A stretch of 64,000 nucleotides of DNA from a virus. The notes under the pieces are model-generated. The model saw only the letters and a list, made by a program, of their open reading frames with translations, searched no databases and had not been told where the DNA came from. The DNA lies in IMG/VR virus record IMGVR_UViG_3300015370_000568, positions 1 through 64,000 of that record; one strand, given 5' to 3'. A program made the translations under genes and the position numbers. Shown piece after piece: positions 15,612 through 41,103 of this stretch. The stretch's first letter is position 1; each line of letters begins with the position of its first letter.

Positions 15612-16456
15612 TTCCTGCCCAAGTAGATAGCAGAATCCATTTCGCCAACCTAGTTGTTAACTGTGGTTGGTGTAATGCTTCCTGTCCTAATTGCTATGTT
15701 CCACACAAGAACTGTGCCTATGACTACACTTTTATGTGGCTTGAAGGTCTGTTCATTGACCCAAGTAATTGTCCTCTGCAACCAGAAGCTATTGTTCTAT
15801 CTCTAGCTAACGATCATCAGCTCATTAAGGAAATCAGTTCAAAGTTTGGAGATAGCATCCTCTGTAGTAAGCCTGATATTACTCTGGCTATCAGAGATGT
15901 AGAACACTTTCTCACTTGGGTTATTCATTCAGGAATCAATCTCCAGACTTGGCTAGGCAATGTAAAACTTGTTCTCAGTAACTATGAAGGTCTTGTTCCT
16001 CTTCTAGCAGAGATAGATTATCGAAAAGTAAATGTTGAGATTGGGATAATTGATAATGGAAGTCCTCTCTCTGCCAGTCAGATTAAGAACTGTCCTTTCC
16101 CTATCTATCGAATTATTCCGAAGCCAGCTGAAGCTCTGGTCTCGGCTGGTACTAATGACCTATGTCTTAGCTATATGCACAATGATCCTCCTTGTCCTGC
16201 TGGGACACAACATTTTAGTGCTTGGCCAGATGGAAGAATCACTGGCTGTCCATATAGAAGATTTCATTCTGCTCCTCTTCTGCATAGTAACCTTAATATA
16301 AGTCAATTGTTCTTTGCTCCATATGATTCATGGGTTCAACAGATTAGAGGACAAATGCGGAACCCTGATCCATATGTTTTCTGTCCAGCTAATTATGAAA
16401 ACGGTTACAAGTTTTGTAACCAAGCTCAACTGCAACGATTTCGTGACTCCTTGTAA
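15608..16456 (+). CDS. divergent radical SAM protein with twitch/SPASM-like region
   Basis: CNASCPNC; CPAG...WPDGRITGCPY. Confidence 0.7.
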   Translation: MIPAQVDSRIHFANLVVNCGWCNASCPNCYVPHKNCAYDYTFMWLEGLFIDPSNCPLQPEAIVLSLANDHQLIKEISSKFGDSILCSKPDITLAIRDVEHFLTWVIHSGINLQTWLGNVKLVLSNYEGLVPLLAEIDYRKVNVEIGIIDNGSPLSASQIKNCPFPIYRIIPKPAEALVSAGTNDLCLSYMHNDPPCPAGTQHFSAWPDGRITGCPYRRFHSAPLLHSNLNISQLFFAPYDSWVQQIRGQMRNPDPYVFCPANYENGYKFCNQAQLQRFRDSL

Positions 16457-26457: not shown

Positions 26458-26694
26458 ATGGTTAGATGTCCTCAATGTAATAGTGAAGTCTACTATGTTC
26501 AAGATGTAACTGAGTATCATTCTTTCGACTTGCTAGATAATGATGATGACTTTGTAGACCTAATAGCACTAGTTGACAGTGTTCCTAATAACGATAAAGG
26601 CTATCGTCTTCACTGTAGTCAATGTCCTAATCAACCAACTATGACTGAGCTAAGGCAATATTATGAAAATAAGACTGACTCATGTAACGAATAG
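26458..26694 (+). CDS. small Zn-ribbon protein
   Basis: CPQC ... CSQC; AGGAG RBS. Confidence 0.6.
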   Translation: MVRCPQCNSEVYYVQDVTEYHSFDLLDNDDDFVDLIALVDSVPNNDKGYRLHCSQCPNQPTMTELRQYYENKTDSCNE

Positions 26695-26968
26695 TTCTTC
26701 CTCTTCTTTTGTAGTTTCGCGAGCAGCGATTACTGGGAAGCAACTACAGCTCATTCATAACCATATTCTCATGGCCGAAGAATTGGGGCTTCATAAGAGC
26801 CCTCCATGGCAAATTATTGAAGATGGCCATGTCATAATTGGGACAACCTCTATGGATAACTTTGATATGCATTTCTTCTTGAAACACATTGGGGTTCCTC
26901 TTAATAGAGTCTTCTGGGCTAGAGCCATTCTGAGAAGGGATAGGGATGAATGTCTTTCTTTAGAGTAA
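26663..26968 (+). CDS. MKIRLxHVTNSSSSSF-tag protein 1
   Basis: N-terminal motif shared by six ORFs. Confidence 0.8.
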   Translation: MKIRLTHVTNSSSSSFVVSRAAITGKQLQLIHNHILMAEELGLHKSPPWQIIEDGHVIIGTTSMDNFDMHFFLKHIGVPLNRVFWARAILRRDRDECLSLE

Positions 26969-28026
26969 CAGTAGAAACAGTAGAGAAGGTCTGGCCGCAT
27001 TCAAATGCTGATAGATTAGAGCTAGCCTCTCTTCAGAACATGAGCTTCCAATTCTGTGTACAAAAAGGGTTATGGAAGTCTGGGGATAAGTGTCTCTATT
27101 TCCCAGTTGATTCTCTCCTCCCCGATAAGACAGCTGAGCTACTAGGAGTAAAAGGATTACTCGCTGGGAAAGAAAAGAATAGAATCAAGACAATTAGACT
27201 ACGAGGAGAATACAGCCAAGGTATCATTGGCCCTTGTGACCTAGTCCCTGAGGCTATTGATTATGAACAGCTTACTGAATACTTTGGGGTAGTTAAGTAT
27301 GAACCACCAGTAACAGAAGAGAAGAGTGCCAGGCTTTTCCCTTTACCAGCTTTTGTTCCTACCTATGATATTGAAGGAGCAGATAGATATAAGCTGGCGG
27401 CTGATGAAATGATGGATTTGCCCATAGCTATTACTGAAAAGCTTGAAGGTATGTGTTCCTCTATCAGCTGGAATCCCGCGACAGCAAAGATTCATCTATG
27501 TTCTCATCGAAAAGATGTAGTACCTAAAGAAGATGGCAGTTCCCATTTCTTTTGGACCACAGCTACAAGAATAGGGCTCTTTGATAAGCTAAGAAAGCTA
27601 GTAGAGTTACTACAAAAAGATGGGCTAGCGTTTCAAGATTCAACTGTCTCTATCTTTGGCGAGTTTTGTGGGCCAAGAGCTCAGGGGAATATTTATGGAC
27701 TACCCAAACATGACATCTACTGTTTTGATATCCGAATAGGAGAACAGTGGCTCGACTTCCCTCTTTGGAAAGACTATTGCCTCAAGGTAGGTCTTACTAC
27801 CGTTCCTATCCTTTGGGATGGACGAGGAACATTGAGAGAAGTTCTAGAAGCCTCCAAGGTTGATAGTATTCCAAAGCTATCAGATGGAGAGTCAGTATTA
27901 AGAAAGAATACAAGGCGGGAAGGAATTGTTATCCGGCCAGTTATTGAACAAAGGTCTGAAATTCTTCATGGCCGGCTTCAATTAAAACAACGATCTCCAG
28001 CCTACTTAGCAAAGTCGGAGAACTAA
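26950..28026 (+). CDS. RNA ligase, DRB0094/Rnl5-like
   Basis: HSNADRLELA, LRGEYSQG, TEKLEG, FGEFCG, YCFDI, REGIVIR motifs. Confidence 0.88.
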   Translation: MSFFRVTVETVEKVWPHSNADRLELASLQNMSFQFCVQKGLWKSGDKCLYFPVDSLLPDKTAELLGVKGLLAGKEKNRIKTIRLRGEYSQGIIGPCDLVPEAIDYEQLTEYFGVVKYEPPVTEEKSARLFPLPAFVPTYDIEGADRYKLAADEMMDLPIAITEKLEGMCSSISWNPATAKIHLCSHRKDVVPKEDGSSHFFWTTATRIGLFDKLRKLVELLQKDGLAFQDSTVSIFGEFCGPRAQGNIYGLPKHDIYCFDIRIGEQWLDFPLWKDYCLKVGLTTVPILWDGRGTLREVLEASKVDSIPKLSDGESVLRKNTRREGIVIRPVIEQRSEILHGRLQLKQRSPAYLAKSEN

Positions 28027-28028
28027 AA

Positions 28029-28469
28029 TTGATTCTTGCTATGACTGCTGGTCTCCCTAGTGCTGGGAAGACCACATTTTGTAGACAACAATTACTTACT
28101 AACTACGTCTATATCAGTCCTGAGTTCCTTGCTCCTCAACAAACAGAGCTGCTGATTCGGACATGTATACAGGCAAACCAACAGCTAATAATTGATGCCC
28201 CTAATCTAAGCAGGGATGACCGAGCAAAGTGGCAAAAGTATAAACCTCATGACTGGAAAAGTTACTGCTTCTACTTCCCTCCTAACATAGACGAATGTCT
28301 TGAAAGGAATAGACAACGGGAAAAAGGTAAATTGCCTGCTCATGTAATCTCTAATGCAGCTATGTTCTGGCGTGAGCCAGAATTAGAAGAAGGTTTTCAC
28401 TCGATTTTCAAAGTCACAGTCCTAGCAGAGAAAAACTTTTCAGTACTATGGGAGAAAAGAGATGCCTAA
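28029..28469 (+). CDS. P-loop polynucleotide kinase-like protein (AAA_33)
   Basis: GLPSAGKTT, IIDAPN, CLERNRQR, PELEEGF; coupled to the RNA ligase. Confidence 0.78.
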   Translation: MILAMTAGLPSAGKTTFCRQQLLTNYVYISPEFLAPQQTELLIRTCIQANQQLIIDAPNLSRDDRAKWQKYKPHDWKSYCFYFPPNIDECLERNRQREKGKLPAHVISNAAMFWREPELEEGFHSIFKVTVLAEKNFSVLWEKRDA

Positions 28470-29175
28470 GAAGGATTTTACCGTTGTAGCTTGCATCCTT
28501 GACCGTTCTGGCTCAATGCAAGGCCTTGAAAATGATGTCATTGGTGGCTATAACACCATGCTCAGAGAACAAAAGCTGCTGCCTGGCAAAGCTAAGTTCA
28601 CTCTTGTCCTCTTTGACGATAAGTATGAGCTAGTCTATGACCTTGTACCTCTTCAAAATGTTCCTGAGCTAACTAAGGAAGTGTACTACACTCGTGGATT
28701 CACTCGTTTGGTCGATGCTTGCTGCGAGACTATCGACTCTCTTGGTGCTCAGTTGGATGCAATGTGTGAAGAGGAGAGACCTGAAGCAGTAGTAATCATT
28801 ATCAATACAGACGGGCAGGAGAATGATTCACAAGAGTATTCTTCAGCTCAACTAGCAGAAAAGATTAAGACTCAGCAGGATACCTACAAATGGAAGTTCA
28901 TTTTCCTTGGTGCTAATCAAGATGCTTTTGCTACGGCAAATCAGTTCCACATTCAGAAAGGCGGGACCTATAACTTTGCGGCTAACTCCGCAGGAATCCG
29001 TGCCAGCTATGCTACCTCTTCAACCCAGATTGGAAGAGCAAGAAGAGTATCAATACAGAATATGCAAGAGCTAGGATTTCAGGGCGATATTCTAGCCCAA
29101 GACCCTATCAATCAGGGAGTAGATAGAGATACAACAGGAGACTCCAATGAAGATTCGTCTAGCTCATGTAACTAA
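28462..29175 (+). CDS. von Willebrand factor A domain protein
   Basis: ILDRSGSM MIDAS motif, TDGQEN, FLGANQDA. Confidence 0.88.
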   Translation: MPKKDFTVVACILDRSGSMQGLENDVIGGYNTMLREQKLLPGKAKFTLVLFDDKYELVYDLVPLQNVPELTKEVYYTRGFTRLVDACCETIDSLGAQLDAMCEEERPEAVVIIINTDGQENDSQEYSSAQLAEKIKTQQDTYKWKFIFLGANQDAFATANQFHIQKGGTYNFAANSAGIRASYATSSTQIGRARRVSIQNMQELGFQGDILAQDPINQGVDRDTTGDSNEDSSSSCN

Positions 29176-29656
29176 CTCATCTTCTAGTAGCTTTCTAGTA
29201 GCTTTTCCTGAAGAGCAGCCAGATACTCCTGAGAAGATGCAAAAGCTTCTGTTTGGAGAACAAGAACTACTTTACCAGACATTTGAAGATGAACCCTGGC
29301 CTACAGAGGAACTAGCTAGAGCAGTATTAGAAAGCCGGCAAACAGTTAAGACTATACCTCTTGAAGTAGAAGCTGTTGTAGCAATGCTAGTTACAGGCTA
29401 TGGCTCATGGAATCATCTTGCAGAAGACCTTACTCAAGGAATGAGTCTAGACGAAAAGTGCAAAAGTTGGCAGGCAATCACAGATTTTGAAGCAGACAAA
29501 GTAGCAAGAGCTTTTATTGAACAAGTCTTACGAAGATTTCCTAAGACTAAAGAGCTTGAAGTCTACGAGTTTGCTGATGAAACTCCTTTAGGTAGTGCAT
29601 TAGAATACAGTAGTGTCTTCAGTACTCTTCCTCATATAACAATTAGTCATCACTAG
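29147..29656 (+). CDS. MKIRLxHVTNSSSSSF-tag protein 2
   Basis: Shared N-terminal motif. Confidence 0.8.
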   Translation: MKIRLAHVTNSSSSSFLVAFPEEQPDTPEKMQKLLFGEQELLYQTFEDEPWPTEELARAVLESRQTVKTIPLEVEAVVAMLVTGYGSWNHLAEDLTQGMSLDEKCKSWQAITDFEADKVARAFIEQVLRRFPKTKELEVYEFADETPLGSALEYSSVFSTLPHITISHH

Positions 29657-29664
29657 GAGCATCA

Positions 29665-30471
29665 ATGATTCCTCATCTAGACGTAGAGAAGGCTTGTGAC
29701 CAAATCGTCAGAGAATACACAGACTTTCTCTCCAAGACGTGGGTTCGTAGACCAGTAGTTGGTATCTCAGGCGGAATTGATTCAGCTGTAGCTGCTGCTT
29801 TATCTTTACGAGCTACTAGAAAGTTCAATACACAGCCGCCTGTATTAGTACATCTTCCAATGGACCATTGTTCCTCTAATGACTCTCTTTTAAGAGCCAG
29901 AGAACTAGCTGTTTCCTTAGGTCTCTATATGAAAGAAGTTTCAATTACCTCAATAGTTAGAGCCTGTGACATAGCCTTTTCAAATGTAGGAATTCTAGGA
30001 CGTTCCTATGTCTCAGACAAGTTTCAGCTGGGAAACATTATGGCCCGAGTAAGAATGATTTCCCTTTGGGCTCTTGCTCGAGCAGAGTCAGGTTTTGTTG
30101 TCGGCACGGGAAATAGAACAGAAACTCTGCTAGGCTACTGTACTCTTCATGGTGATGATGCTTGTATCATTAACCCATTGGCTGGTCTCTACAAGCAATG
30201 GGTATATGAACTGGCAGAGTATCTAAAAATTTCTGAATCAATCATCAAAGCTCCTCCATCGGCAGAACTTTGGTCAGGACAGACAGATGAACAAGAGTTA
30301 GGTTTTTCGTATGAAATTGCCGATGAAGTCTGCTATGCTCATGACCATCTCAATTATCCTTTGCAGGAGGTTACTCAAAGTATTAAAGATGTTATTGCTC
30401 AAATCAATAGAACATCCTTTAAGAGAGAAGTTCCCTATAATCTAGGAACTAAACTTCCGTTGGCCCTGTAG
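29665..30471 (+). CDS. nadE: NH3-dependent NAD+ synthetase
   Basis: GISGGIDS, NIMARVRM, GTGNRTE, GYCTLHGD, PPSAELWSGQTDEQELG. Confidence 0.93.
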   Translation: MIPHLDVEKACDQIVREYTDFLSKTWVRRPVVGISGGIDSAVAAALSLRATRKFNTQPPVLVHLPMDHCSSNDSLLRARELAVSLGLYMKEVSITSIVRACDIAFSNVGILGRSYVSDKFQLGNIMARVRMISLWALARAESGFVVGTGNRTETLLGYCTLHGDDACIINPLAGLYKQWVYELAEYLKISESIIKAPPSAELWSGQTDEQELGFSYEIADEVCYAHDHLNYPLQEVTQSIKDVIAQINRTSFKREVPYNLGTKLPLAL

Positions 30472-30536
30472 CTCAAGGGTGGCAGCTCTGGTCTTATAAA
30501 CCAGGGGAGGTAGTTCGAGTCTACCCAGGGTCACCA
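30462..30536 (+). tRNA. tRNA-Ile(TAT)
   Basis: CTGGT-CTTATAA-ACCAG; CCA. Confidence 0.88.
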
Positions 30537-30582
30537 GAAAAGATAATTGACCAGATACTAAAAAAAGATAGAATAAAAAGTA

Positions 30583-30656
30583 CGACTCATAGGATAACGG
30601 TAGTCCGTATCTCTGATAAGGATAAAGAGGTAGTTCGACTCTACCTGAGTCGACCA
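30583..30656 (+). tRNA. tRNA-Ile(GAT)
   Basis: TATCT-CTGATAA-GGATA; CCA. Confidence 0.88.
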
Positions 30657-30663
30657 GGAAAAT

Positions 30664-30739
30664 GGGGTCGTAGCTCAATTGGGAGAGCACCTGACTTGCA
30701 CTCAGGAGGTTGCCGGTTCGATTCCGGCCGACTCCACCA
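30664..30739 (+). tRNA. tRNA-Ala(TGC)
   Basis: G3:U70 pair; CTTGCAC loop; CCA. Confidence 0.94.
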
Positions 30740-30741
30740 GT

Positions 30742-30816
30742 AGGGTATTAGTGTAGAGGTTAGCACGGTAGATTGTCGATCTACAGTCAGGAGTTCAATT
30801 CTCCTATACCCTGCCA
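30742..30816 (+). tRNA. tRNA-Asp(GTC)
   Basis: GTAGA-TTGTCGA-TCTAC; G73; CCA. Confidence 0.9.
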
Positions 30817-30830
30817 AAGAAAGAAGTTAT

Positions 30831-30906
30831 GCCCTAGTAGCACAGAGGCCAGTGCAGGAGTTTTGTAAACTCAAGGTCGGCGGTTCAAATCCGTCCTAGG
30901 GCTCCA
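30831..30906 (+). tRNA. tRNA-Thr(TGT)
   Basis: GAGT-TTTGTAA-ACTC; CCA. Confidence 0.9.
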
Positions 30907-30907
30907 T

Positions 30908-30984
30908 ACGCCCATAGCTCAACTGGATAGAGTAATGGGTTTCTACCCCATAGGTTGTAGGTTCAAGTCCTACTGGGCGTACCA
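30908..30984 (+). tRNA. tRNA-Arg(TCT)
   Basis: ATGGG-TTTCTAC-CCCAT; CCA. Confidence 0.9.
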
Positions 30985-31174
30985 AAAAGGTATTCAAGAT
31001 GTGTGAGTTATCAGAAAGACAACTAGCTGAAGGAGAAAGGTATCTCCGGCTTTGGCAAGAAACCTCTCAAGAAATGTGGCTAGTCTATTTAGAAAAATGG
31101 CTATGGGATTATCATGAAGCTCTCATTTCTATGGCTAGACAGCAACTAAATACTCAGAAAATAAGATAGAGTAA

Positions 31175-32245
31175 GTGAGAAAAATAACTTTACTCATACA
31201 CTTAGTAGTATTTTTCTTTCCTCTAACTACTATAGCAAGATCTTCTGTAATTGTACTTCCTTCTATAAATAAAGAAACTAAAATGGCTAGTCCTCAGTGG
31301 CATTATCTTGTAGAAGGAATCATTGTTCAGCAACTACTTACTGAAAAATCTCCTTGGTCTGTAAGTAGTTTATCTTCTATAATAGAGCAATTAGAAACTG
31401 AAAAGGCTAAACAATTGGCTCTATGTACAGAAGATAGAGGGCGCCACGAGCCTCGAGCCATTCCGCATGGAGCTCCGCTCCCTGGGCGCCCGCTTCGCCA
31501 CACATGCTCACGAGTGGGTGGAGCGCCAGGGCACGCGCCTCTCCCTCCCGGCCGGTGCCTCCCTCGAGGGCCAGGCCACGGTGCAGCCGGGCGGCACGGA
31601 GATCGAGCTGCGGGGCTCCCTGGACGGACAGGGCCTCTCCCTGGCCGCCCAGCTCCCGGCCCTGGACCTGCCCTTCGCCAACGGCACGGCGAGCCTCGTC
31701 TCCGATCCCCTGGCCAAGGTGGCCCGGCTGGCCGGCGGCGCCGGGCAGATCAAGGTCCCCCACGACAATCGACTGAACATGGCCGCGGGCACCATCGAGG
31801 CCTGGGCAGACTGAAGAGGAGGATGACGATGGGACGAGAGACAGTGAGGAAGGGATACCAGCCGTCCTCCGGCAAGAAGCCGATGACGGAGGGGTATCAG
31901 CCGTCCCGCCGGTCAGCAGATGCGAGCCACACGTTCGTGGCTCCGAAACCTCCGCGTCCGCGTCCCTCCTCGAACGGAAAGTCCCACTCCAGGTCTGTTC
32001 AAGAGCTTCGTAAAAGACTACCAAATCTTGAAAAAGATCTTGTTCAGATTCCTATATCAGAAGATCACTATAAAACAATAGGATTGTTAGAAATTGATTC
32101 TGAAGGAATCTTAATTGGAATCCCAGGAGCCAGGGGTATGTCTCCGAACGCCAAAATGGAGCCTATAGTAAGATATCAGCTTCAAAAATCAGGGTTTTAT
32201 CTAAAGCTTGAAAAGCTTAAGAAGGATTCAAAGACCAATATGTAA
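31175..32245 (+). CDS. signal-peptide protein interrupted in frame by a GC-rich insert (chimeric or pseudogene)
   Basis: Hydrophobic N-terminus; AT-rich flanks; the central G/P/R-rich translation comes from off-frame reading of foreign DNA. Confidence 0.55.
   Translation: MRKITLLIHLVVFFFPLTTIARSSVIVLPSINKETKMASPQWHYLVEGIIVQQLLTEKSPWSVSSLSSIIEQLETEKAKQLALCTEDRGRHEPRAIPHGAPLPGRPLRHTCSRVGGAPGHAPLPPGRCLPRGPGHGAAGRHGDRAAGLPGRTGPLPGRPAPGPGPALRQRHGEPRLRSPGQGGPAGRRRRADQGPPRQSTEHGRGHHRGLGRLKRRMTMGRETVRKGYQPSSGKKPMTEGYQPSRRSADASHTFVAPKPPRPRPSSNGKSHSRSVQELRKRLPNLEKDLVQIPISEDHYKTIGLLEIDSEGILIGIPGARGMSPNAKMEPIVRYQLQKSGFYLKLEKLKKDSKTNM
31440..31993 (+). other. GC-rich foreign (host-like) DNA fragment
   Basis: Sharp GC jump; contains the 3' end of a gene (stop 31814), RBS GAGGAGG, and the start of a GYQP-repeat small protein at 31823; boundaries approximate. 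Confidence 0.85.
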
Positions 32246-32260
32246 TTCTCGATAGCAATT

Positions 32261-32336
32261 GGGTCTGTAACTCAAATGATAGAGTTCCGCCCTTTTAAGG
32301 CGGGGGTTCTGGGTTTGAATCCCAGCAGGCCCACCA
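32261..32336 (+). tRNA. tRNA-Lys(TTT)
   Basis: CCGCC-CTTTTAA-GGCGG; CCA. Confidence 0.92.
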
Positions 32337-32358
32337 CTTAACTATTAAGGAAAGAAAT

Positions 32359-32562
32359 ATGCGCTATTTCCTTCTCCTAGCTTCCTTACTATTCCTCTCC
32401 TGTGATATAGACCTTTCCTCTCAAGCAACAAGACAAGTAATCAAACAGTGCTTAATAGCACAGGAAGAGGGATATCTTACCTGTCAGCTAAGAATCATTG
32501 GACAAGTTCCAAATATATCTTGTCTATGTAAAACAGTACCTCTATTAGAAACAGGCCCGTAG
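32359..32562 (+). CDS. small putative lipoprotein
   Basis: MRYFLLLASLLFLSC lipobox-like N-terminus; stop codon inside tRNA-Gln. Confidence 0.55.
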   Translation: MRYFLLLASLLFLSCDIDLSSQATRQVIKQCLIAQEEGYLTCQLRIIGQVPNISCLCKTVPLLETGP

Positions 32563-32626
32563 TGTAATGATAACATTGAGGAATTTGGCTCCTCAGTTGT
32601 GGGTTTGAATCCTACCGGGCCTGCCA
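32553..32626 (+). tRNA. tRNA-Gln(TTG)
   Basis: GAGGA-ATTTGGC-TCCTC; G73; CCA. Confidence 0.88.
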
Positions 32627-32644
32627 TTTTTAGAAAGGTTCTCG

Positions 32645-33769
32645 ATGAATACACTATATCTTCCAGCTCTCTATCATCAAGGTTCTAAAGGAGCCATAGT
32701 TCAATGGCAAGTATGGACAGTAAATGATGAAATCCATACTCTCTATGGACAAGTAGATGGCAAACAGCAACAGGCTATGAAGAAAGCAGTAGGAAAGAAT
32801 ACTGGAAAGGCTAATGCTACTACTGCAGAAGAACAAGCTCAACTAGAAGCTAAAGCTATGTGGACAAAACGTCTTGAAGGTAAATATAGTGAGACAATAG
32901 AAGAAGCCAAAGAGACAGTCTTCTTACCAATGCTTGCTCATAAGTTTGCAGACTATAAGAAGAATTTAGTCTATCCTGTAGATGTTCAACCAAAGCTGGA
33001 TGGTCTTCGTTGTCTTGTGTTTTGGCGAAAAAACAGAGTTTGTTTTTTAAGTAGAGGTGGGAAGGATTATACTTCTCTAGACCATCTAGGTAAGAAAATT
33101 GCCTGCTGGCTACCTAAAGATTTCATTCTCGACGGCGAACTCTATCTCCACGGTCTTACCCTTCAAGAAATTAACCGACGAGTTAAAAAGTATAGACCAG
33201 GAAAGACAGAAGAGATTCAGTACTGGTGCTATGATGGTTTTCCTCTATCAGACCATGATACTCTTCCTTGGCAGCTACGCTTTGCAAGTCTACGAGGTCT
33301 ATGGTCCTCTATCGAGGCAGAAGAAAGAGACCAGTGCAGACTAGTCAGAACAACCACTGTTGATAATGAGGCTGATGTTCTCACTCTTCAACAAGAATAT
33401 ATGCAGACAGGATTTGAAGGAGCTATTGTTCGAGCTCGTACTGGTCCTAATGTCTTCTATACTCTTGGTCATAGAAACCAAGGACTATTAAAAGTAAAGT
33501 CTTTTGATGATACTGAGTTCCCAGTAATAGGCTTCAAGGAAGGTGTTGGCCGATTTGAAAAGGCAGTTGTCTGGACTTGTAAACTGCCCTCTGGCGAAAC
33601 ATTTGACTGTGTTCCTAAAGGCACTATGGAACAAAAGCGAGAATGGTTTGCCAACGGACATAAGTACATAGGCAAACTGCTTACAGTCAAACATCAAGGG
33701 ACTTCTGAAACAGGCGTCCCTCTATTCCCAGTTGGCTTAGGCTTCCGACTTGAAGAAGACCTACCGTAA
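32645..33769 (+). CDS. ATP-dependent DNA ligase
   Basis: PMLA, QPKLDGLRC, LDGELY, FEGAIVR, LLKVK, PLFPV. Confidence 0.92.
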   Translation: MNTLYLPALYHQGSKGAIVQWQVWTVNDEIHTLYGQVDGKQQQAMKKAVGKNTGKANATTAEEQAQLEAKAMWTKRLEGKYSETIEEAKETVFLPMLAHKFADYKKNLVYPVDVQPKLDGLRCLVFWRKNRVCFLSRGGKDYTSLDHLGKKIACWLPKDFILDGELYLHGLTLQEINRRVKKYRPGKTEEIQYWCYDGFPLSDHDTLPWQLRFASLRGLWSSIEAEERDQCRLVRTTTVDNEADVLTLQQEYMQTGFEGAIVRARTGPNVFYTLGHRNQGLLKVKSFDDTEFPVIGFKEGVGRFEKAVVWTCKLPSGETFDCVPKGTMEQKREWFANGHKYIGKLLTVKHQGTSETGVPLFPVGLGFRLEEDLP

Positions 33770-34019
33770 GAAAGGATACTCTATGCCCTACAATGCTTTG
33801 AAATGGAAGAAAGGTCCCGACCTTAAGCAAATCAGTCTCTGCTTCAAGGATGAAGAAGGTGAATGGGAACCCATTGTCACACTCTTCCCTATGATTCAAC
33901 CAGGGAATAAGATTCTCTGGTGGGAAGCCACCATTGTTACCTCTTCATGGGCTGGCTCTTGGCGTACTCTCAAGGAAGCTAAGCAAGCAGTAGAAGCCTA
34001 TGTAAAGACTTGGTATTAG
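33750..34019 (+). CDS. hypothetical protein
   Basis: ORF ending TLKEAKQAVE. Confidence 0.55.
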   Translation: MKKTYRKKGYSMPYNALKWKKGPDLKQISLCFKDEEGEWEPIVTLFPMIQPGNKILWWEATIVTSSWAGSWRTLKEAKQAVEAYVKTWY

Positions 34020-34032
34020 AAAGGAAAGAGCA

Positions 34033-34239
34033 TTGATTGTCTGTGTAAATTGTAAACAAGAAATGCAATGTACTAAGAATGGAGTAGGCATTGACTTTGG
34101 CAATGGACATATCTATGCCGGGGATAAATACTCCTGTTCTCAGTGCAATGCTACAATCATTCGAACTAACGCTGCCTCACATCATGACCCTGAATATACT
34201 TTTCATGATGAATATCTAAGAATGCCAGCCCTATTATGA
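34033..34239 (+). CDS. small Zn-ribbon protein
   Basis: CVNC ... CSQC. Confidence 0.6.
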   Translation: MIVCVNCKQEMQCTKNGVGIDFGNGHIYAGDKYSCSQCNATIIRTNAASHHDPEYTFHDEYLRMPALL

Positions 34240-34859
34240 GACGATTAGAATATTCCATAGTAGCTGAGTTTACAGCATTACCTCATGATATCAGAGATAT
34301 AGACTATTGGAGTAACCAAGTTCCTCTAGGCATTACTATTTCTGAACCAGGGGACCATGACTATATCTATCTAGCAGTAGAAGAAGAGTTACCTAATCAT
34401 ACTCCTACAGACCCAGACCAACCTTGTCTGGACTGTCCTATTAGAGAAGAGGACAGCTGTCCTTTCTGGTGCCAGTTTGCCTATAAAGGGCAGGTATTAC
34501 ATGCTTCAGGAATTCTCACTCAGAAAGAATTTGACAAGTGGGTAAGTAATCTGTACTTAGTTGCAGATAGTACTGAGACAATGGGTACTTTAGGAGGTCC
34601 TTTAGCTCCTTGGGGAGGAGTAGTTCCAGATATAGTTTTTCAGTATGAGTCTCAGACAGTTATTGCTTCCATTCGTGTAACTCCTTTTGTAGTAGATGAG
34701 AATAGAGAAGGGGTTCCTATTCCTTGGCGCGAAATGAACAATAACGATTTACTTAAAGCCTATCTAGGCCAAATGACTAGAGAACAATACATGCATAGAA
34801 GAGCAGAACGGTTCTGGATACGACTTAAGAAAGCAATCTGTCAAAAGTATCAGCCCTAA
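34236..34859 (+). CDS. hypothetical protein
   Basis: ATGA-coupled ORF. Confidence 0.6.
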   Translation: MRRLEYSIVAEFTALPHDIRDIDYWSNQVPLGITISEPGDHDYIYLAVEEELPNHTPTDPDQPCLDCPIREEDSCPFWCQFAYKGQVLHASGILTQKEFDKWVSNLYLVADSTETMGTLGGPLAPWGGVVPDIVFQYESQTVIASIRVTPFVVDENREGVPIPWREMNNNDLLKAYLGQMTREQYMHRRAERFWIRLKKAICQKYQP

Positions 34860-34875
34860 CTCTATTGGAGAAGAT

Positions 34876-35718
34876 ATGTCTGTATTGACTGTTGCATACA
34901 AAGCATTTACTCACAATCTCTGCTCACCTATTCAAGGCGGCGAGCCGATTTGGGATGGAGCACTACCGTTCAGTCTGCCTTCGGTTATAATGGATAAATC
35001 AGATAAGAAATGTAGTTATGGCTGGAATGCTGCCAGAGACCCTAAAACTGTAATCCAGATTGCTGGTCTTTGTCCAGGTGGATGGCCGGTACGACTCTAT
35101 TGTGTTGAAACTAAGGGTAAAGTCATTGAGAGAGGGGATAAATTACGTGCTTCAACATGGCGGATTGTTAAGGAAATACCAGTTCAACCAGTGATAGAGA
35201 GCTTTTCTCAAGAGGCATTTTCAGCACAGCATACTAAGATTATGAGCAAAGAGCAAATAGCATGGTATCAAGCTCTCGGACGTCCTCAATGGTCACTGTC
35301 AAAGGTAATTCGAGGCCTTGAGACCTCATTGAAAGCTAGAGGCTTGAACTGGACCCTTCAGCGTTTTGAGTCTGCTGGAGCTGTCTGGACTTTTAGAGCG
35401 GCTGCTCCTATTTGGCCTACTAATAATGCCTGGAACATCGTAACTACCGAAACTGGTCTACACTGCTTAAACAAAGATACTAGGGAGGCTACTAAAAAAA
35501 TTAGGAATACCTGGTTTCCCTGGCCTACTTGTAATATTCAGACCTCCTGGGCTGCTGGAGATGCTTGGGCCGCATTATTAGTTCAATATGCTGCGCGAAA
35601 TAACTGGATCTCACATCGCCCAGACCTACTAACTGTCGGTTTACGATCAGCATATCGACATGGATTAGCAATTGCCTTACCAGTTGGGGCAGACACACTA
35701 GGCTGGGCAATGATATAA
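34876..35718 (+). CDS. hypothetical phage protein
   Basis: AYKAF...CSYGWN...LYCVET...DKLRAS pattern, similar to 20589 and the 21010 N-terminal domain. Confidence 0.6.
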   Translation: MSVLTVAYKAFTHNLCSPIQGGEPIWDGALPFSLPSVIMDKSDKKCSYGWNAARDPKTVIQIAGLCPGGWPVRLYCVETKGKVIERGDKLRASTWRIVKEIPVQPVIESFSQEAFSAQHTKIMSKEQIAWYQALGRPQWSLSKVIRGLETSLKARGLNWTLQRFESAGAVWTFRAAAPIWPTNNAWNIVTTETGLHCLNKDTREATKKIRNTWFPWPTCNIQTSWAAGDAWAALLVQYAARNNWISHRPDLLTVGLRSAYRHGLAIALPVGADTLGWAMI

Positions 35719-35730
35719 GGAGAAGCTATA

Positions 35731-35979
35731 ATGTCAGAGAACACGCTCAATACCACTGTTATAACTGAGACAGAGATGCATGTTGATATCAGCCGTTCTC
35801 AACTACAAGAGTTCCTAGCTCAGGTTACTAGAGTAGAAGGCTTCCTAGATAAGGAAATTCATACCATAGAGATTAAGCCTATTACGAGTGGGGGAAACCA
35901 TACTGCTTTCAGGGTAGTAGCTAAGAAACGAGTATGCCAATTAATTAGCAACTCTCCTATAGCTAACCATGATTATTGA
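35731..35979 (+). CDS. hypothetical protein
   Basis: AAGGAG RBS. Confidence 0.55.
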   Translation: MSENTLNTTVITETEMHVDISRSQLQEFLAQVTRVEGFLDKEIHTIEIKPITSGGNHTAFRVVAKKRVCQLISNSPIANHDY

Positions 35980-36005
35980 CAAAGTGTTACTTGTTAGACT
36001 ACAAT
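35976..36005 (+). promoter_or_regulatory. sigma70-like promoter
   Basis: TTGACA-18 nt-TACAAT. Confidence 0.5.
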
Positions 36006-36027
36006 TGCAGGCGAGAGGACCTGCAGT

Positions 36028-36375
36028 TTGGTCAATTCCCCTGAACACAATGAAATTCTATTTGACGATGTCAAACACCTATTAGCTGACCTATTAGAAC
36101 GAGCAGTTCGAGATCTATTGATACTAAGTCCAGATGACCCCTATTTTGAGACAGCTTTTGGCCTAATCTTTGATGATGAATATCTTATTTATTTTGATGA
36201 GCCAGATGAAAAAGGACATCAGAAGCCTGACGGAGAAACCCTTTCACTTGACGAGATTCTATCAGTCGTCGATATTGATAAGGAGTTCCTCAGATGTCAG
36301 ATGAGAAAGAGACTATACGAGATGAAGAGACCTCTTGCTTGCCAACTGTTTGGGAAAGAATTGGACTGGAAATAG
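36028..36375 (+). CDS. hypothetical protein
   Basis: ORF downstream of the promoter. Confidence 0.55.
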   Translation: MVNSPEHNEILFDDVKHLLADLLERAVRDLLILSPDDPYFETAFGLIFDDEYLIYFDEPDEKGHQKPDGETLSLDEILSVVDIDKEFLRCQMRKRLYEMKRPLACQLFGKELDWK

Positions 36376-36791
36376 GAGAACTTGTAGCTCAAAAACAAGA
36401 AGCCTATGGAAACTCTTTCGGCCAGGCATATCGAATCCTAGAAGTTCTATTTCCTCAAGGAATAAGTCCTCAAGACTATCATAAAGTTCTATTAATAGCT
36501 CGAGTAATAGATGAACTCTTCCGGTATGTTACTCTCCCTAATGCTTTTGGAGAATCTCCCTGGAGAGATATTGTAGGCTATGGCCTACTTGAAATTGCTA
36601 ACCAGGAGAATAGTCAAGAATATAGTCCCTCAAAGCTACTTGAAATGACCTCAGATGCTCTTGAGACCACTACACAAGCTCTCAAAATTATCAGACAACT
36701 TGCATCTTCCTCTACAGCCCGGGCTAATATAATGGATATAGAGTATGAGGCCGACAAAGCATTGAAATTAACAGTGGAGAACAGCAATTGA
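36294..36791 (+). CDS. nucleotide-modification-associated (DUF1599/Nmad-like) protein
   Basis: KQEAYGNSF...RVIDELFR...ESPWRDIVGYGLL pattern. Confidence 0.6.
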   Translation: MSDEKETIRDEETSCLPTVWERIGLEIGELVAQKQEAYGNSFGQAYRILEVLFPQGISPQDYHKVLLIARVIDELFRYVTLPNAFGESPWRDIVGYGLLEIANQENSQEYSPSKLLEMTSDALETTTQALKIIRQLASSSTARANIMDIEYEADKALKLTVENSN

Positions 36792-37219
36792 AAATCCGTC
36801 TAACTCATGTGACTAATAGTTCATCTTCTAGCTTTCTCTGTCTAGTAAAGAAAGAGGCTGCTAATGAGGTTCTTGATACATATCCTGAGCCAGTAAGAGA
36901 ACTCCTTCTGGAGGAAGTTGCCCGGGAACTTCTTTGTCTAGGTCAAGAGGCTCTCGCTTTTGTAAATATGTATATTCAGAGCTATTCTCTTCATGAAAGA
37001 GAGATGCAAGATAAAGTCACACAGCTACAAGAAAAATATAAGGATCTTCAGGTCCTTGACTGTTATGATCATAGTATCATAGAGATAATTGACAACTTCA
37101 GTCGAGAAGTAGAAGAAAAATATCCTGGGGCAACTTTTTCTGCTCAAATATTTGATGATAATCCTCCAACCTTTTTCTCTAGAAAGCCAGAAGATGATTC
37201 TAATCAGACCGAGTCATGA
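36788..37219 (+). CDS. MKIRLxHVTNSSSSSF-tag protein 3
   Basis: Shared N-terminal motif; TTG start. Confidence 0.8.
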   Translation: MKIRLTHVTNSSSSSFLCLVKKEAANEVLDTYPEPVRELLLEEVARELLCLGQEALAFVNMYIQSYSLHEREMQDKVTQLQEKYKDLQVLDCYDHSIIEIIDNFSREVEEKYPGATFSAQIFDDNPPTFFSRKPEDDSNQTES

Positions 37220-38936
37220 AATTATAGAGACAGCTGGAGACGAAAAGCTTGTCGAGAGAGTAGCTCGTACTTGCTATAAGTCTGAGAGTAGAATTACAGA
37301 TGACTCAGCCAATAAGTTTGTCAAAATGCTTCGAGATAGAGGTCATCATGCAATGCTTGAATTTGGCTGGGTATGTGTGAAATTCATATGTGATCGGGGA
37401 TGCTGCTATGATTCCCAGACAGAGGTTCTAACTCAAGGGGGGTGGAAGTACTTTAAGGATCTCATACAAGAAGATAAATTGGCCTGTCTCAATGACTCTA
37501 ACTATCTAGAATGGCACCAACCTCAGACTCTACAGCAATATGATTTCAAAGGAAAGATGCTCTCCTTTCAGACACCTGTAATTGACCTAATGGTAACTCC
37601 AAACCACAAGATGTGGGTATTTGATTACGACAAGTGTTCTTCAAAGACAGGAATGTGGAAATTTCTAGAAGCGCAAGATATGACCAATGGTCACTATGGA
37701 ATATCCAAGACTGCACATTGGCATGGCGAAGAAAAGACAGTCTGTATTCCAGAGCATCCAACAAGACGACTACAATTTCCGGCACTACAATTTGATCATA
37801 TTTTAACTGCAGACCTATTTGAATTACTAGGTCTCTGGGCTATAAATGGATCTTATAGATATAGCACCGGTTGGCGTAGTAGCTCTTCAATTCAGATCTC
37901 ACTAACTGAGCTTTCTGTATATCAAAAGATCAAATCTCTATGTCAAAACCTGGGACTCCGCTGTACTCGTCATAGAAACGAGCTTCATATTGATAATCTT
38001 CGCTTGTTCCAATTTGTCTTGGAATTATTTGGCCAAGGACCAAGGCGGGTTCCTGACCTTATTAAGGAGGCCTCAGCAGCACAAATTCGCCGCTTTTTGG
38101 ACGGAGTAGTTGCAGGAGATAACTCTATCCAGGCCAGTAATGGACATATAACAATCTACACAGCATCAAAACATTTTGCCGACGGTTTACAAGAATTATA
38201 CCTCAAAGTAGGAGGATTATCTGCGAATATTAAAGTAGAATTTCCAAGAGAAAGCGAAATACTTGCTGGAATTTCTACTTCCCCTAATCAAAAGATATAT
38301 CTTGTCTCTGTCCATAAAAGAAAAAGATCTATACATCGCCTTGATCGCAGATCTGCTGAAGCATTTAGAGAACCAGTCAAGTATAGTGGTAAAGTTTACT
38401 GTGCCACAGTGCCTTTCCATCGACTTTATGTTCGTCGCAATGGTAAAGCCTGCTGGTCTGGTAATTCGCATGAACTAGTAAGACATAGACTAGTATCATT
38501 TGCACAAGAAAGCACAAGATACTGTAATTATAGGGGTGGCATAACATTTGTTATCCCTCCCTGGCTAGATTTACCAGAAGGAGAATATAACCTTGACTCT
38601 GAAGAGGTTCACTGTAATAACAAACTAGTTCCTGGTCTATATAAAGCATCTCATCCAGCTGGAAGATGGTTCTGGCATATGATTGATTCACAAAGTAACT
38701 ACCAGGCTCTTCTTACAGTACAAAACTGGACACCTCAACAAGCCAGGTCAGTTCTTCCAAATAGTCTTAAGACAGAAATAGTATGTGCCGGAAATCTTCG
38801 AGAGTGGCGACATATTCTCCAGCTCCGAACCAGTAAAGCTGCTCATCCTCAAATGCAAGAACTAATGGTCCCATTACTCAAAGACTTTCAAACAAGATGG
38901 CCAGTTTTGTTTGAAGACATAGGAGAAAAATTATGA
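37194..38936 (+). CDS. thyX: flavin-dependent thymidylate synthase with intein
   Basis: ARTCYKS, RGH.AMLE, DRGC|intein|SHELVRHR, SFAQESTRY, ARSVLP, NLREWRH, AHPQM. Confidence 0.92.
   Translation: MILIRPSHEIIETAGDEKLVERVARTCYKSESRITDDSANKFVKMLRDRGHHAMLEFGWVCVKFICDRGCCYDSQTEVLTQGGWKYFKDLIQEDKLACLNDSNYLEWHQPQTLQQYDFKGKMLSFQTPVIDLMVTPNHKMWVFDYDKCSSKTGMWKFLEAQDMTNGHYGISKTAHWHGEEKTVCIPEHPTRRLQFPALQFDHILTADLFELLGLWAINGSYRYSTGWRSSSSIQISLTELSVYQKIKSLCQNLGLRCTRHRNELHIDNLRLFQFVLELFGQGPRRVPDLIKEASAAQIRRFLDGVVAGDNSIQASNGHITIYTASKHFADGLQELYLKVGGLSANIKVEFPRESEILAGISTSPNQKIYLVSVHKRKRSIHRLDRRSAEAFREPVKYSGKVYCATVPFHRLYVRRNGKACWSGNSHELVRHRLVSFAQESTRYCNYRGGITFVIPPWLDLPEGEYNLDSEEVHCNNKLVPGLYKASHPAGRWFWHMIDSQSNYQALLTVQNWTPQQARSVLPNSLKTEIVCAGNLREWRHILQLRTSKAAHPQMQELMVPLLKDFQTRWPVLFEDIGEKL
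37404..38465 (+). mobile_element. intein (354 aa) with LAGLIDADG-like endonuclease region
   Basis: Starts CYDSQTEVLT, contains VTPNHKM, ends VYCATVP..LYVRRNGKACWSGN before Ser+1; interrupts the ThyX motif. Confidence 0.9.
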
Positions 38937-39157
38937 CGCTAGCACTACGAATCCTGAATATAGCAATCGCTCTTGCCTGTCTAGGTAATTTACTTAATGT
39001 CTATCTATCTAATGAGAACTCTATGGCTATTCTCGGATGGACTACTGCATTCATGCTTGCAGTAGTAGCAGTAGCAAACAACGAAAAAAGTAATGTTCTC
39101 AACAAGCTAGCAACAAAAGAAGAAAGAAAGGCCGGTAGTCTTGAAAATCAGACTTAG
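38933..39157 (+). CDS. small two-TM membrane protein
   Basis: Two hydrophobic helices. Confidence 0.55.
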   Translation: MTLALRILNIAIALACLGNLLNVYLSNENSMAILGWTTAFMLAVVAVANNEKSNVLNKLATKEERKAGSLENQT

Positions 39158-39617
39158 CCATGTAACTAACTCCTCTTCTAGTAGCTTTATAGTCTTGGAC
39201 CCTCATCTAACTAAAGAGCAGCGAGAGGTTCTCGTAAATTATCCTGGCTTTAAGTTTGAAGAGACTACTAGAGTCTGGCGAATTAGTGTTATCTGTAACG
39301 AAGAAGATGTAAGTAATCTACTTGAAGAGCACAGGATTCCCTATAAAGCCAAGATACACTATAACTGTGAAGCTCACATCTTTGATGGAACTTATCTAGC
39401 AGTAATACCCAACTTTGGAGAAGTAGCTAGTATATATGGACTTCGACATGTCCTTCAAGATAGATATCCTTCCCTAACACCTTATAATGAACAGATTAGA
39501 GGAGCAATCAAGATAGTAAACGTGCTAAAAGGAGAACAGGAACTCACTCCTGAGTTAAGAGAAGAGTTAGTTCAAAGGGAAAAAGGATTAGAAGAAAAGG
39601 AAAGGGAATTGCAATGA
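39141..39617 (+). CDS. MKIRLxHVTNSSSSSF-tag protein 4
   Basis: Shared N-terminal motif; TTG start. Confidence 0.8.
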   Translation: MKIRLSHVTNSSSSSFIVLDPHLTKEQREVLVNYPGFKFEETTRVWRISVICNEEDVSNLLEEHRIPYKAKIHYNCEAHIFDGTYLAVIPNFGEVASIYGLRHVLQDRYPSLTPYNEQIRGAIKIVNVLKGEQELTPELREELVQREKGLEEKERELQ

Positions 39618-39985
39618 AGATTCTAAAGTATGGCGGCGACCTTTATACAGCAGCAATAATTACTATTAGAGATGGAGCAATTATTGCCTCAGAAGTTAGA
39701 CAACTCCGAATGGCTTCTGTACGACACGAAGGTGTATCAGGGATGATTCCCCTTCTGACACCTCCCGATTTTTGTAATGCTCCTGTATCAACAATGACTT
39801 TTCCCCTAGCTGCTACTGCATACTATGCTGCAGAGGGAGAAGATGAGAAGACCTACCTGGAAATTATCAAACAGACCGAAGAGATTGAACAGTCTCAGAG
39901 AGCTGCTAAGGCAGGTATTGCTCTAGCTGGTAGTATCCCTAGTGGTCTTCCTTCACCAGGAGCTTTACAGTCAGCCTTCAAGTAG
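39614..39985 (+). CDS. hypothetical protein
   Basis: ATGA-coupled ORF. Confidence 0.6.
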   Translation: MKILKYGGDLYTAAIITIRDGAIIASEVRQLRMASVRHEGVSGMIPLLTPPDFCNAPVSTMTFPLAATAYYAAEGEDEKTYLEIIKQTEEIEQSQRAAKAGIALAGSIPSGLPSPGALQSAFK

Positions 39986-39999
39986 AAAGGCTAATTCTT

Positions 40000-40224
40000 A
40001 TGCCAATGTTTCGAATAAGTATTTACTGGGCCGACCCAGATGAAATGACTCAACACCATCTATTAGGCACAGTTACTATCGAGGCAAATAATGTCTGGAT
40101 AGCCAAACAAGATGCTATGGATATACTCTGGGACGAAAGACTTAATGCCTGTGCTATTATTGAAGTAGAAGAAATAGAAGCAGAAAAGGAGGAAGAATGT
40201 CACGAATTGCTCGATCCGACTTAA
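40000..40224 (+). CDS. hypothetical protein
   Basis: GAAAGG upstream. Confidence 0.55.
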   Translation: MPMFRISIYWADPDEMTQHHLLGTVTIEANNVWIAKQDAMDILWDERLNACAIIEVEEIEAEKEEECHELLDPT

Positions 40225-40409
40225 TAGAGTTTGTAAGAGAAGATGCTCAACAAAACTGTGACAACCCTTTTAGTAGCTGCTATACCGACTGTACTTCTCA
40301 AGACCAAGCTAACTGTACTTCACTGCTCCTGTATAAGCTTCTAAGCAGTATGTCAGATGCCGAAGTAGAATATCATCTGTATGGCGAGCCAGGACTAGGA
40401 GAATTTTAA
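40197..40409 (+). CDS. hypothetical protein
   Basis: AGGAGG RBS. Confidence 0.55.
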   Translation: MSRIARSDLIEFVREDAQQNCDNPFSSCYTDCTSQDQANCTSLLLYKLLSSMSDAEVEYHLYGEPGLGEF

Positions 40410-40411
40410 CG

Positions 40412-40753
40412 ATGAAAATTAGGCTGGCACATGTAACTAACAGCAGCTCTCAGAGCTTCTTTATTTGCAGACCTCTAGAAGAAGAGAATAAACCTATCCT
40501 TCTAGCTGTGGATGTCTCTGCAGAGACCAGGACCTTCCATTCTGAAGAAGAGTATGAAGCTTTCATGGTAGACCATGAATGGATTCCAGAGGAAGATTCA
40601 AAAATCCGGGCTGCATTAAGACAAGGAAAAATCATCGAGCTCGTAGAAGGTGATACAAATGAGTACGGTATTAGCCGAAATATTGGACAGGCCATGAGCA
40701 AAGACTTTCTCTTAACAAATGGTGCATATTTAGTAACTAGAGAGGAAAATTGA
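40412..40753 (+). CDS. MKIRLxHVTNSSSQSF-tag protein 5
   Basis: Shared N-terminal motif. Confidence 0.8.
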   Translation: MKIRLAHVTNSSSQSFFICRPLEEENKPILLAVDVSAETRTFHSEEEYEAFMVDHEWIPEEDSKIRAALRQGKIIELVEGDTNEYGISRNIGQAMSKDFLLTNGAYLVTREEN

Positions 40754-40755
40754 GT

Positions 40756-41103
40756 ATGAAAATAAGACTTTGTCATGTTACTAATAGCTCATCTTCCTCT
40801 TTCTGTATTGTAGGAATGGGGATTGATAGCTTTCTACAGATTGCTCATAAGCAAGACCCAGAAAAGTATCCAGAAACTTCTGGAGGCTGGGGAGATCAAT
40901 GGTTTGAAGAGCTTGCAGGACAAGACCTAGCAGAAGGCCAAGAGGCAAGCGAAGTCATTGGTCTAGATATTACTAAAATCAAAGAGAATGAAACTCTTGG
41001 CCAGTTTCGCCAAAGAGTCTGTGATAAACTCCTAGAAGCTACAGGGGTTCAACTGACTCCAAACCAACTATATTTCTGTAAGGATAGTTGGTACGATGGC
41101 TAA
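40756..41103 (+). CDS. MKIRLxHVTNSSSSSF-tag protein 6
   Basis: Motif starts at ATG 40756. Confidence 0.8.
   Translation: MKIRLCHVTNSSSSSFCIVGMGIDSFLQIAHKQDPEKYPETSGGWGDQWFEELAGQDLAEGQEASEVIGLDITKIKENETLGQFRQRVCDKLLEATGVQLTPNQLYFCKDSWYDG

Follow-up and report, generated by a model that had tools for sequence, protein, structure and literature searches.

A common N-terminal peptide of unrelated phage proteins is linked to a radical SAM/SPASM enzyme and might couple them to it

The window analysed here is the first 64 kb of the 131,084-bp virus record IMGVR_UViG_3300015370_000568, which is classed as linear and about 65% complete and looks like a large tailed phage. It carries six open reading frames (ORFs) whose products begin with the same 16 residues, MKIRLxHVTNSSS(S/Q)SF (the tag), and, at position 5281, a gene for a radical S-adenosylmethionine (SAM)/SPASM enzyme. 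We propose, with a probability of about one half, that this N-terminus couples the six proteins, and hundreds of proteins in other phages, to enzymes of the 5281 type, which probably modify them. Gene linkage and sequence comparison make a functional interaction between tag and enzyme highly probable; a covalent change made by the enzyme inside roughly the first 16 residues is a more tentative proposal, somewhat less likely than not.

Six window proteins share only their N-terminus

The tag opens six plus-strand ORFs of 101–169 amino acids (aa) between 26.6 and 41.1 kb (Table 1), and 14 of its 16 positions are invariant among them. A six-frame scan of the whole record returned the motif exactly six times, always within this interval, which confirms the count given in the original prediction, an earlier note on this DNA. 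The codons vary much more than the residues: two to five different codons are used at 15 of the 16 positions, the sole fixed one being that of His7 (CAT). Serine codons alternate between AGY and TCN, arginine is encoded by AGA, CGT or AGG, and four genes start with ATG and two with TTG. Thus, as had been suggested originally, the constraint acts on the peptide and not on the DNA. Each of the six starts is preceded by a GGAG/AGGA-like stretch; in the last ORF, the open frame reaches a TTG at 40750, and the ATG at 40756 matches the common start.

Past the tag, no relationship among the six is evident, again as first noted. Their MAFFT alignment has no conserved column after F16, and the profile of the canonical family (proteins of about 170 aa, represented here by the 29147 product) could be aligned with the other five by hhalign only over residues 1–18 to 1–25. 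Four of the six bodies, i.e., the portions that follow the tag, belong to families found in other phages and are thus recurrent rather than unique to this one; the cluster of the 26663 protein has 27 unique members and that of the 39141 protein has seven. The six have isoelectric points (pI) between 4.5 and 8.05. Their Pfam matches did not rise above noise, and the only match among the PHROGs was phrog_7397, a family of unknown function.

Table 1. Tagged genes, the radical SAM/SPASM gene and neighbouring genes of the window
Feature	Position	Strand	Remarks
Radical SAM/SPASM enzyme	5281..6450	+	The record's single member of the tag-linked family
Tagged protein, 101 aa	26663..26968	+	Short body family (cluster 4); hhalign probability 99.6%
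RNA ligase	26950		Adjoins tagged genes
AAA_33 kinase	28029		
VWA gene	28462-29175		Last 29 bases shared with the beginning of canonical tagged gene 29147-29656
Tagged protein, 169 aa	29147..29656	+	Canonical family ending ...HITISHH; PHROG 7397, 3e-07
NAD synthase	29665		
Tagged protein, 143 aa, TTG start	36788..37219	+	Body singleton in the sample; best hhalign probability 3.7%
ThyX with intein, LAGLIDADG endonuclease domain	37152-38936	+	Pfam Thy1 3.8e-34 in two stretches; LAGLIDADG_3 1.3e-06
Tagged protein, 158 aa, TTG start	39141..39617	+	Body cluster 11; hhalign probability 100%, E 1.4e-42
Tagged protein, 113 aa, Gln at tag position 14	40412..40753	+	Body singleton in the sample; best hhalign probability 6.5%
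Tagged protein, 115 aa	40756..41103	+	Distant kin of families with a W/Y-x-D-G C-terminus; hhalign 94% (cluster 14), 90% (cluster 7)

Genes for the tag and the enzyme accompany each other

Linkage was studied in 133 phage loci, of which 53 came from a scan of IMG/VR with the canonical alignment (tag-anchored loci) and 80 were anchored on the enzyme; the latter are the best 80 of the 488 stretches, among 586 candidates, that matched a profile built from 30 enzymes. All ORFs of 90 aa or more from the tag-anchored loci were clustered; one untagged family was present in 40 of the 53 loci, and the next most widespread in 13. The former consists of homologs of the 5281 product (29–35% identity, E 1e-36 to 1e-57), encoded within 10 kb of the tags, on the tags' strand and mostly 1–5 kb upstream of them. 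Six of the 13 loci that lack a nearby enzyme gene have one elsewhere on the contig, so that tag and enzyme share a contig in 46 of the 53 cases. Both contigs of at least 90% completeness among the 13 carry such a distant enzyme, and the remaining seven contigs are 2–20% complete.

The linkage is also apparent from the enzyme's side. Between one and seven tagged ORFs were found within 10 kb of the enzyme gene in 75 of the 80 enzyme-anchored loci, all on the enzyme's strand, and a tagged ORF often begins right after the enzyme's stop codon. Of the five tagless loci, four run into the end of their contig. The original prediction had proposed a portable N-terminal element served by a dedicated enzyme and had named two putative radical SAM genes, at 5281 and 15608, as candidates; linkage in both directions supports this view for the first of them. 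The 15608 ORF was rejected as a partner: neither Pfam nor NCBIfam matched it, and homologs were found in none of the 133 loci. A partnership with the VWA gene that adjoins the canonical tagged gene was likewise rejected, with homologs in four of the 133 loci; NadE and the RNA ligase, two further neighbours in the window, have homologs in five and eight loci, respectively.

Bacterial-genome records and cultured phages were also surveyed. An enzyme gene lies within 8 kb in 13 of 14 tag loci from bacterial-genome records, the fourteenth locus being cut; these loci come from Lachnospiraceae, other Clostridia, Bacteroidales, candidate-phyla bacteria and Omnitrophota. The 50,697 records of cultured phages include 163 with the canonical protein and 169 with the enzyme, both in the same group of T4-like phages. 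The tallies by taxon are close (tagged protein vs. enzyme: Klebsiella, 112 vs. 107; Enterobacter, 20 vs. 20; Cronobacter, 13 vs. 14; Citrobacter, 11 vs. 11), and 10 of the 30 enzyme-bearing records listed recur among the 40 tag-bearing records listed. In phage GAP161, for example, the tagged protein GAP161_111 (annotated as 'hypothetical protein') and the enzyme GAP161_155 ('putative radical SAM protein') are encoded about 20 kb apart, a spacing much like that in the present genome. The enzyme is also found in the E. coli phages RB16 and Lw1, and close T4-like relatives possess a single enzyme with a single tagged protein.

The 5281 product is a SPASM/twitch-type maturase homolog

The 5281 product matches Pfam Radical_SAM (PF04055) at 1.6e-10 (41.8 bits vs. 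a cut-off of 29.5), and its cluster motif CxxxCxxC reads CNKSCRIC. Toward the C-terminus, it contains a CxxCx5Cx3C run, as well as the cysteines C283, C302, C320 and C365, which are invariant in the family. Pfam SPASM gave no match at E ≤ 0.01 for this product; among 30 members of the enzyme family, Radical_SAM was matched in 25 and SPASM in 19, with nothing else, and the shorter members look twitch-like. The best NCBIfam matches of the 5281 product are peptide and protein maturases (GeoRSP, ScmE, WgkB and mycofactocin), all far below their cut-offs (for GeoRSP, 62 bits vs. 400). Its closest solved relatives by sequence are SkfB (6efn, E 9.3e-10), the aminoglycoside enzyme BtrN (4m7t, 3e-07), SuiB (5v1q, 2.5e-06) and PqqE (6c8v, 2e-05). 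Judged from these similarities, the family is a distinct branch of the SPASM/twitch maturases. A conserved N-terminal extension of roughly 60 residues is typical of it; no PqqD-type peptide-recognition domain was matched by Pfam at E ≤ 0.01 in any of the 30 enzymes, and a divergent element of this kind is possible within the extension.

One sub-branch of the family (loci L006, L013, L030–L033, L042, L051, L052 and L054) has Cx7Cx6C in place of CxxxCxxC (Cx5Cx6C in L013). The enzymes of this sub-branch accompany tags with Thr at position 9.

The tag is widespread and precedes many different bodies

A search of 1.84 billion cluster representatives with a profile built from the six window proteins and one database relative yielded 5,745 representatives at E ≤ 1e-3 and 402 at E ≤ 1e-10. 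Of the best 150 matches, 133 are 150–200 aa long and end in His. The 133 phage loci, together with the present genome, hold 475 tagged ORFs (356 unique), whose bodies form 89 clusters, including 58 singletons. At least two tagged ORFs are present in 40 of the 53 tag-anchored loci, arranged in same-strand arrays that reach a maximum of ten in each of two loci. The tag is near-identical in very different phages and in bacterial-genome records.

The bodies comprise 80–260 aa and are mostly acidic (median pI 4.6, with 88% below 5.5). When they were compared profile against profile, after removal of the tag and four further residues, only five of the cluster pairs tested reached a probability of 15% or more; clusters 0 and 2, 5 and 11, and 6 and 14 appeared distantly related. 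No residue common to all bodies that could serve as a shared site was found in this comparison.

The canonical family is the best defined. In an alignment of 120 sequences, N10, S11, S12, S14, F16, E153 and the C-terminal H169 are invariant, and M1, K2, R4, F7, V8, S13, S15, P25, F36, D144, H154, F158 and S167 are at least 90% conserved. Among the six window proteins, only the 29147 product combines the tag with the C-terminal Asp, Glu-His and final His of this family. Pfam gave no match for eight members of the wider family, the best E-value of the canonical profile against PDB by sequence was 1.4, and the ESM Atlas returned only viral hypothetical clusters. The canonical body was rejected as an obligatory member of the system, because it is present in only 46 of the 75 tag-bearing enzyme-anchored loci.

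Two side observations concern other bodies. Cluster 0 (e.g., L008:9505 and L010:11698), the most numerous satellite family with 38 unique members, has F-[VI]-C-D-[IV]-C-G directly after the tag and may bind metal; where an enzyme-anchored locus is devoid of the canonical family, it usually has this one. Moreover, two database proteins contain the tag twice, P0096 with a second copy near residue 135 and P0005 with a direct repeat of its first 31 residues; these are probably read-through products or mis-called tandem genes.

Tags vary by genome rather than by body

All six window tags conform to the motif [ST]-N-S-S-S-x-S-[FY] from residue 9, preceded by M-K-x-R-x-x-[FH]-V; across the collected tags, position 9 is Thr or Ser in 100%. 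The pattern used for detection left positions 1–8 free. The start codon lies exactly eight codons upstream of the motif in 351 of the 356 unique tags, a count for which the start picker tried the eight-codon offset first. Although they were unconstrained by the pattern, M1, K2, R4, F7 and V8 are conserved in 90–99% of tags, with K2 reaching 99%.

The variation that remains is concerted. In tags of different body clusters at the same locus, positions 4, 6, 7 and 9 are all identical in 1,046 of 1,300 pairs (80%); in tags of the same body cluster at different loci, this holds for 2,144 of 4,944 pairs (43%), against a background of 22%. Such uniformity is consistent with a single partner shared by all tags of a genome. 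Gene conversion limited to the tag is an unlikely source of it, because the tags differ at synonymous sites. All six window tags, for example, have His7, and their codons differ at other positions. His7 was otherwise found once in L016 and in all three tags of L096 (9378, 11488 and 11838), the only other locus in which it occurs throughout; it may be the sign of a lineage in which the enzyme has changed correspondingly.

Several resemblances to known sites were considered for the tag itself. A 2H phosphoesterase, with its two H-x-T/S motifs, was rejected, as position 7 is His in 3% of tags and Phe in 92%. A glycyl-radical activation site was rejected because position 6 is Gly in 42% and Asp in 51%, and the window tags have Thr, Ala, Ser or Cys there. 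A HAD-like or PP-loop-like nucleotide loop was dropped, since no match supports the resemblance.

The tag is predicted to begin as a free arm

AlphaFold models were obtained for two window proteins. The model of the 29147 protein has a predicted local distance difference test (pLDDT) score of 90.4, with an average of 56 over the first 10 residues and a first strand at residues 13–18; that of the 26663 protein has a pLDDT of 77.5, with residues 1–11 below 50 and a first strand at 14–19. The two models differ in size and in the order of secondary-structure elements. As modelled, the tag starts with an unattached arm (M-K-x-R-x-x-F/H-V-S/T-N), and the serine-rich residues that follow run into the fold.

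No clear structural relative was recovered. The best E-value of the 29147 model was 0.47 against PDB by Foldseek and 0.11 against viral predicted structures, and VIA-align against 48,161 chains gave a best Z of 5.2 over 62 helical residues. For the 26663 model, the best VIA-align Z of 6.8, to ferredoxin-like designs and acylphosphatase-like and ACT-like domains, is below the noise level of 7–8. A prediction of the complex formed by the enzyme, SAM, three 4Fe-4S clusters and the canonical tagged protein yielded no verdict (scores of 0.22, 0.43 and 0.17 vs. a mark of 0.32) and was counted neither way.

What the enzyme might do with the tagged proteins

From the linkage and the conservation of the tag, we infer that the enzyme binds the tag and modifies it, with the following site and chemistry. 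The unattached N-terminal arm, up to about residue 11 (MKIRxxxV-S/T-N), would enter the enzyme as an extended strand. The enzyme would then cleave SAM at its iron-sulfur cluster, and the resulting radical would abstract a hydrogen atom within the invariant Asn-Ser-Ser-Ser-Ser-Ser-Phe tract. The outcome would be a covalent change on each tagged protein, for example, serine oxidation or a cross-link, and a single enzyme might in this way mature a varied collection of small phage proteins from the early region, most of them acidic. The tag is favoured as the modification site because the N-S-S-S-S-S-F tract is unusually invariant, because its distance from the N-terminus is fixed, and because no recognition domain was detected in the enzyme, as in the sulfatase maturase, for which the conserved motif is the modification site itself.

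Several points weigh against this proposal. In the present genome, 21 kb separate the single enzyme gene from the first tagged gene downstream of it, and local operon logic is thus absent. The enzyme-anchored locus L108 has full flanks and no tag, and seven of the 53 tag contigs, all of them small fragments, lack the enzyme. The linkage partly reflects co-inheritance, as near-duplicate loci are included (129 tagged loci collapse to 90 groups). In both models, residues 13–19 form a predicted core strand, so that conservation of the tag could be partly structural. Furthermore, the leaders of peptide natural products usually serve as a handle and not as the modified site, and the chemistry outlined above is deduced, not observed.

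The strongest alternative we hold possible but distinctly less probable. According to it, the tag only docks the proteins on the enzyme and is itself unchanged; the enzyme would modify a residue of the body, or the bodies would be exchangeable adaptors that aim the enzyme, much as a shared docking box is combined with variable recognition domains. The linkage accords with this equally well, tag variants that track the genome are expected of a docking peptide matched to one partner, leaders act as handles as a rule in peptide natural-product systems, and 89 body clusters would suit diversified target recognition. However, seven near-invariant residues (N-S-S-S-S-S-F, constrained by the detection pattern among the tags at large but not in the 120-sequence profile alignment) exceed what known handles need. 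Moreover, neither a body residue shared as a common site nor, in the 30 enzymes, a recognition domain was detected.

It is less probable still that the tag is a structural motif of a fast-evolving superfamily, i.e., a folding or oligomerisation element composed of the arm and first strand, with the enzyme acting in the same pathway but making no contact. The modelled core strand at residues 13–19 and the distant kinship of a few body clusters point in this direction, and the C-terminal Asp, Glu-His and terminal His of the canonical family suggest an autonomous active or metal site. On the other hand, most pairs of body families lack profile similarity, and residues 1–11, which the models leave unplaced, include the highly conserved M1, K2, R4, F7 and V8. 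A link through the pathway alone would, moreover, leave the uniformity of tags within genomes unexplained. The outcome that the original prediction had set against its own proposal, one divergent fold with no accompanying enzyme, does not agree with two differing models and a strong linkage.

Processing or sorting without the enzyme, either by intein-like self-cleavage at Asn|Ser or through an N-terminal signal for capsid packaging or export, is very unlikely: the G-F-V-S-N|S of the wider family does resemble the last strand of an intein, and T4 internal proteins do share an N-terminal capsid-targeting peptide on unrelated bodies, but the only intein-like matches in the record lie inside complete host genes (ThyX and an 855-aa ORF at 78–79 kb), the His usual before the terminal Asn is absent, and no orphan N-terminal intein half was seen among the Pfam Intein_splicing and LAGLIDADG matches (other Hint families were not searched); a tag near-identical across very different phages and bacterial records is unlike a lineage-specific packaging signal, a signal peptide was rejected for want of a hydrophobic core of the requisite length, and the linkage to the enzyme would be left unexplained. 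The cleavage and packaging options of the original prediction thus found no support.

Comparison with known radical SAM and tagging systems

The pair formed by the tag and the 5281-type enzyme is a new variation on the radical SAM maturase theme. As with maturases of the SkfB, SuiB and PqqE type, one enzyme is accompanied by several putative substrates, which are encoded next to it and have a conserved recognition sequence in common. The maturases of peptides that are made by the ribosome and modified after translation act on short peptides, whereas the candidate substrates here are whole proteins with predicted folded bodies; their size and the two confident models argue against a small released peptide. 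The shared sequence stands at the extreme N-terminus and is far more invariant than a leader, no PqqD-type domain was detected, no NCBIfam model reaches its cut-off, and the carriers are phages.

With the anaerobic sulfatase-maturating enzyme (anSME/AtsB), the system would have in common that a SPASM radical SAM enzyme acts on whole proteins. anSME oxidises Ser or Cys in a short motif near the N-terminus, Cys/Ser-x-Pro/Ala-x-Arg, without a leader. This sulfatase motif is absent from the tag, as none of the six window tags has Pro or Arg at positions 9–20. Sulfatases share one fold, unlike the many body clusters found here, and anSME is not among the PDB or NCBIfam matches listed for the 5281 product.

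The capsid-targeting sequence of T4 internal proteins is likewise a short N-terminal peptide on unrelated small phage proteins encoded in variable clusters. In a comparison by sequence reading alone, its cleavage site, Leu/Ile-x-Glu, is absent from the tag; moreover, the T4 sequence is lineage specific and has no radical SAM partner.

Within the library searched, neither the motif strings nor search listings on phage radical SAM/SPASM enzymes gave a description of a tag-enzyme system. A parallel consists of FxSxx-type peptides encoded with radical SAM/SPASM genes in bacterial vWA-MoxR ternary conflict systems (Kaur, Burroughs, Iyer, Aravind 2020; PMC7159879); these systems also combine variable proteins bearing a short conserved piece with an adjacent radical SAM/SPASM gene in a setting of biological conflict, but the piece is C-terminal and released by a peptidase, and the systems are bacterial. 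A vWA gene adjoins one tagged gene here as well, but the rarity of its homologs in the loci examined sets the tag apart from the FxSxx arrangement.

Genomic surroundings

The RNA ligase, VWA, nadE and thyX genes reported originally as neighbours of the tagged genes are correctly assigned according to Pfam-type annotation of the window, which also contains a DNA ligase gene. Nineteen tRNA genes lie in four groups on the plus strand between 21995 and 32626, interleaved with the genes for the RNA ligase, AAA_33 kinase and NAD synthase and with two tagged genes; the ligase and kinase beside the tRNAs look like an RNA-repair module. At 31175–32245, there is a G+C-rich stretch (0.495 in 30–32 kb vs. 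about 0.42 around it) with overlapping long ORFs in several frames and on both strands, one of which would encode a 356-aa product rich in Pro, Gly and Arg; this stretch may be foreign or non-coding DNA. The ORF at 15608–16456 (plus strand, 282 aa) has a CxxCxxxCxxC run near its N-terminus and may be a second, orphan iron-sulfur protein. Outside the window, the 855-aa ORF (78196–79407, minus strand) has a weak match to Pfam Intein_splicing (7.7e-08, below the cut-off) and may be a second intein-bearing phage gene.

Implications

The early-region position of the tagged genes and their acidic, diversifying bodies suggest a role in host take-over or counter-defence. In a bolder version of the proposal, which we consider unlikely, a single enzyme would equip the N-terminal serine tract of many unrelated effectors with a reactive or cross-linking group, and this would constitute a class of post-translational modification of its own that acts on whole proteins. 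Such radical tagging, if it occurs, would arm or stabilise a fast-diversifying arsenal of early gene products against the host, with sister forms in bacterial mobile elements.

If the tag does couple these proteins to the enzyme, a unifying logic would be available for very common 'hypothetical' phage genes, which account for thousands of protein clusters and can number ten in a single genome. The reach of radical SAM/SPASM chemistry, so far peptides and sulfatases, would be widened to many kinds of folded viral proteins; a new protein modification could come to light, and a portable tag-enzyme pair for protein engineering would be possible. The system is abundant and can be tested in cultured T4-like phages of enterobacteria, among which GAP161 offers a minimal pair.

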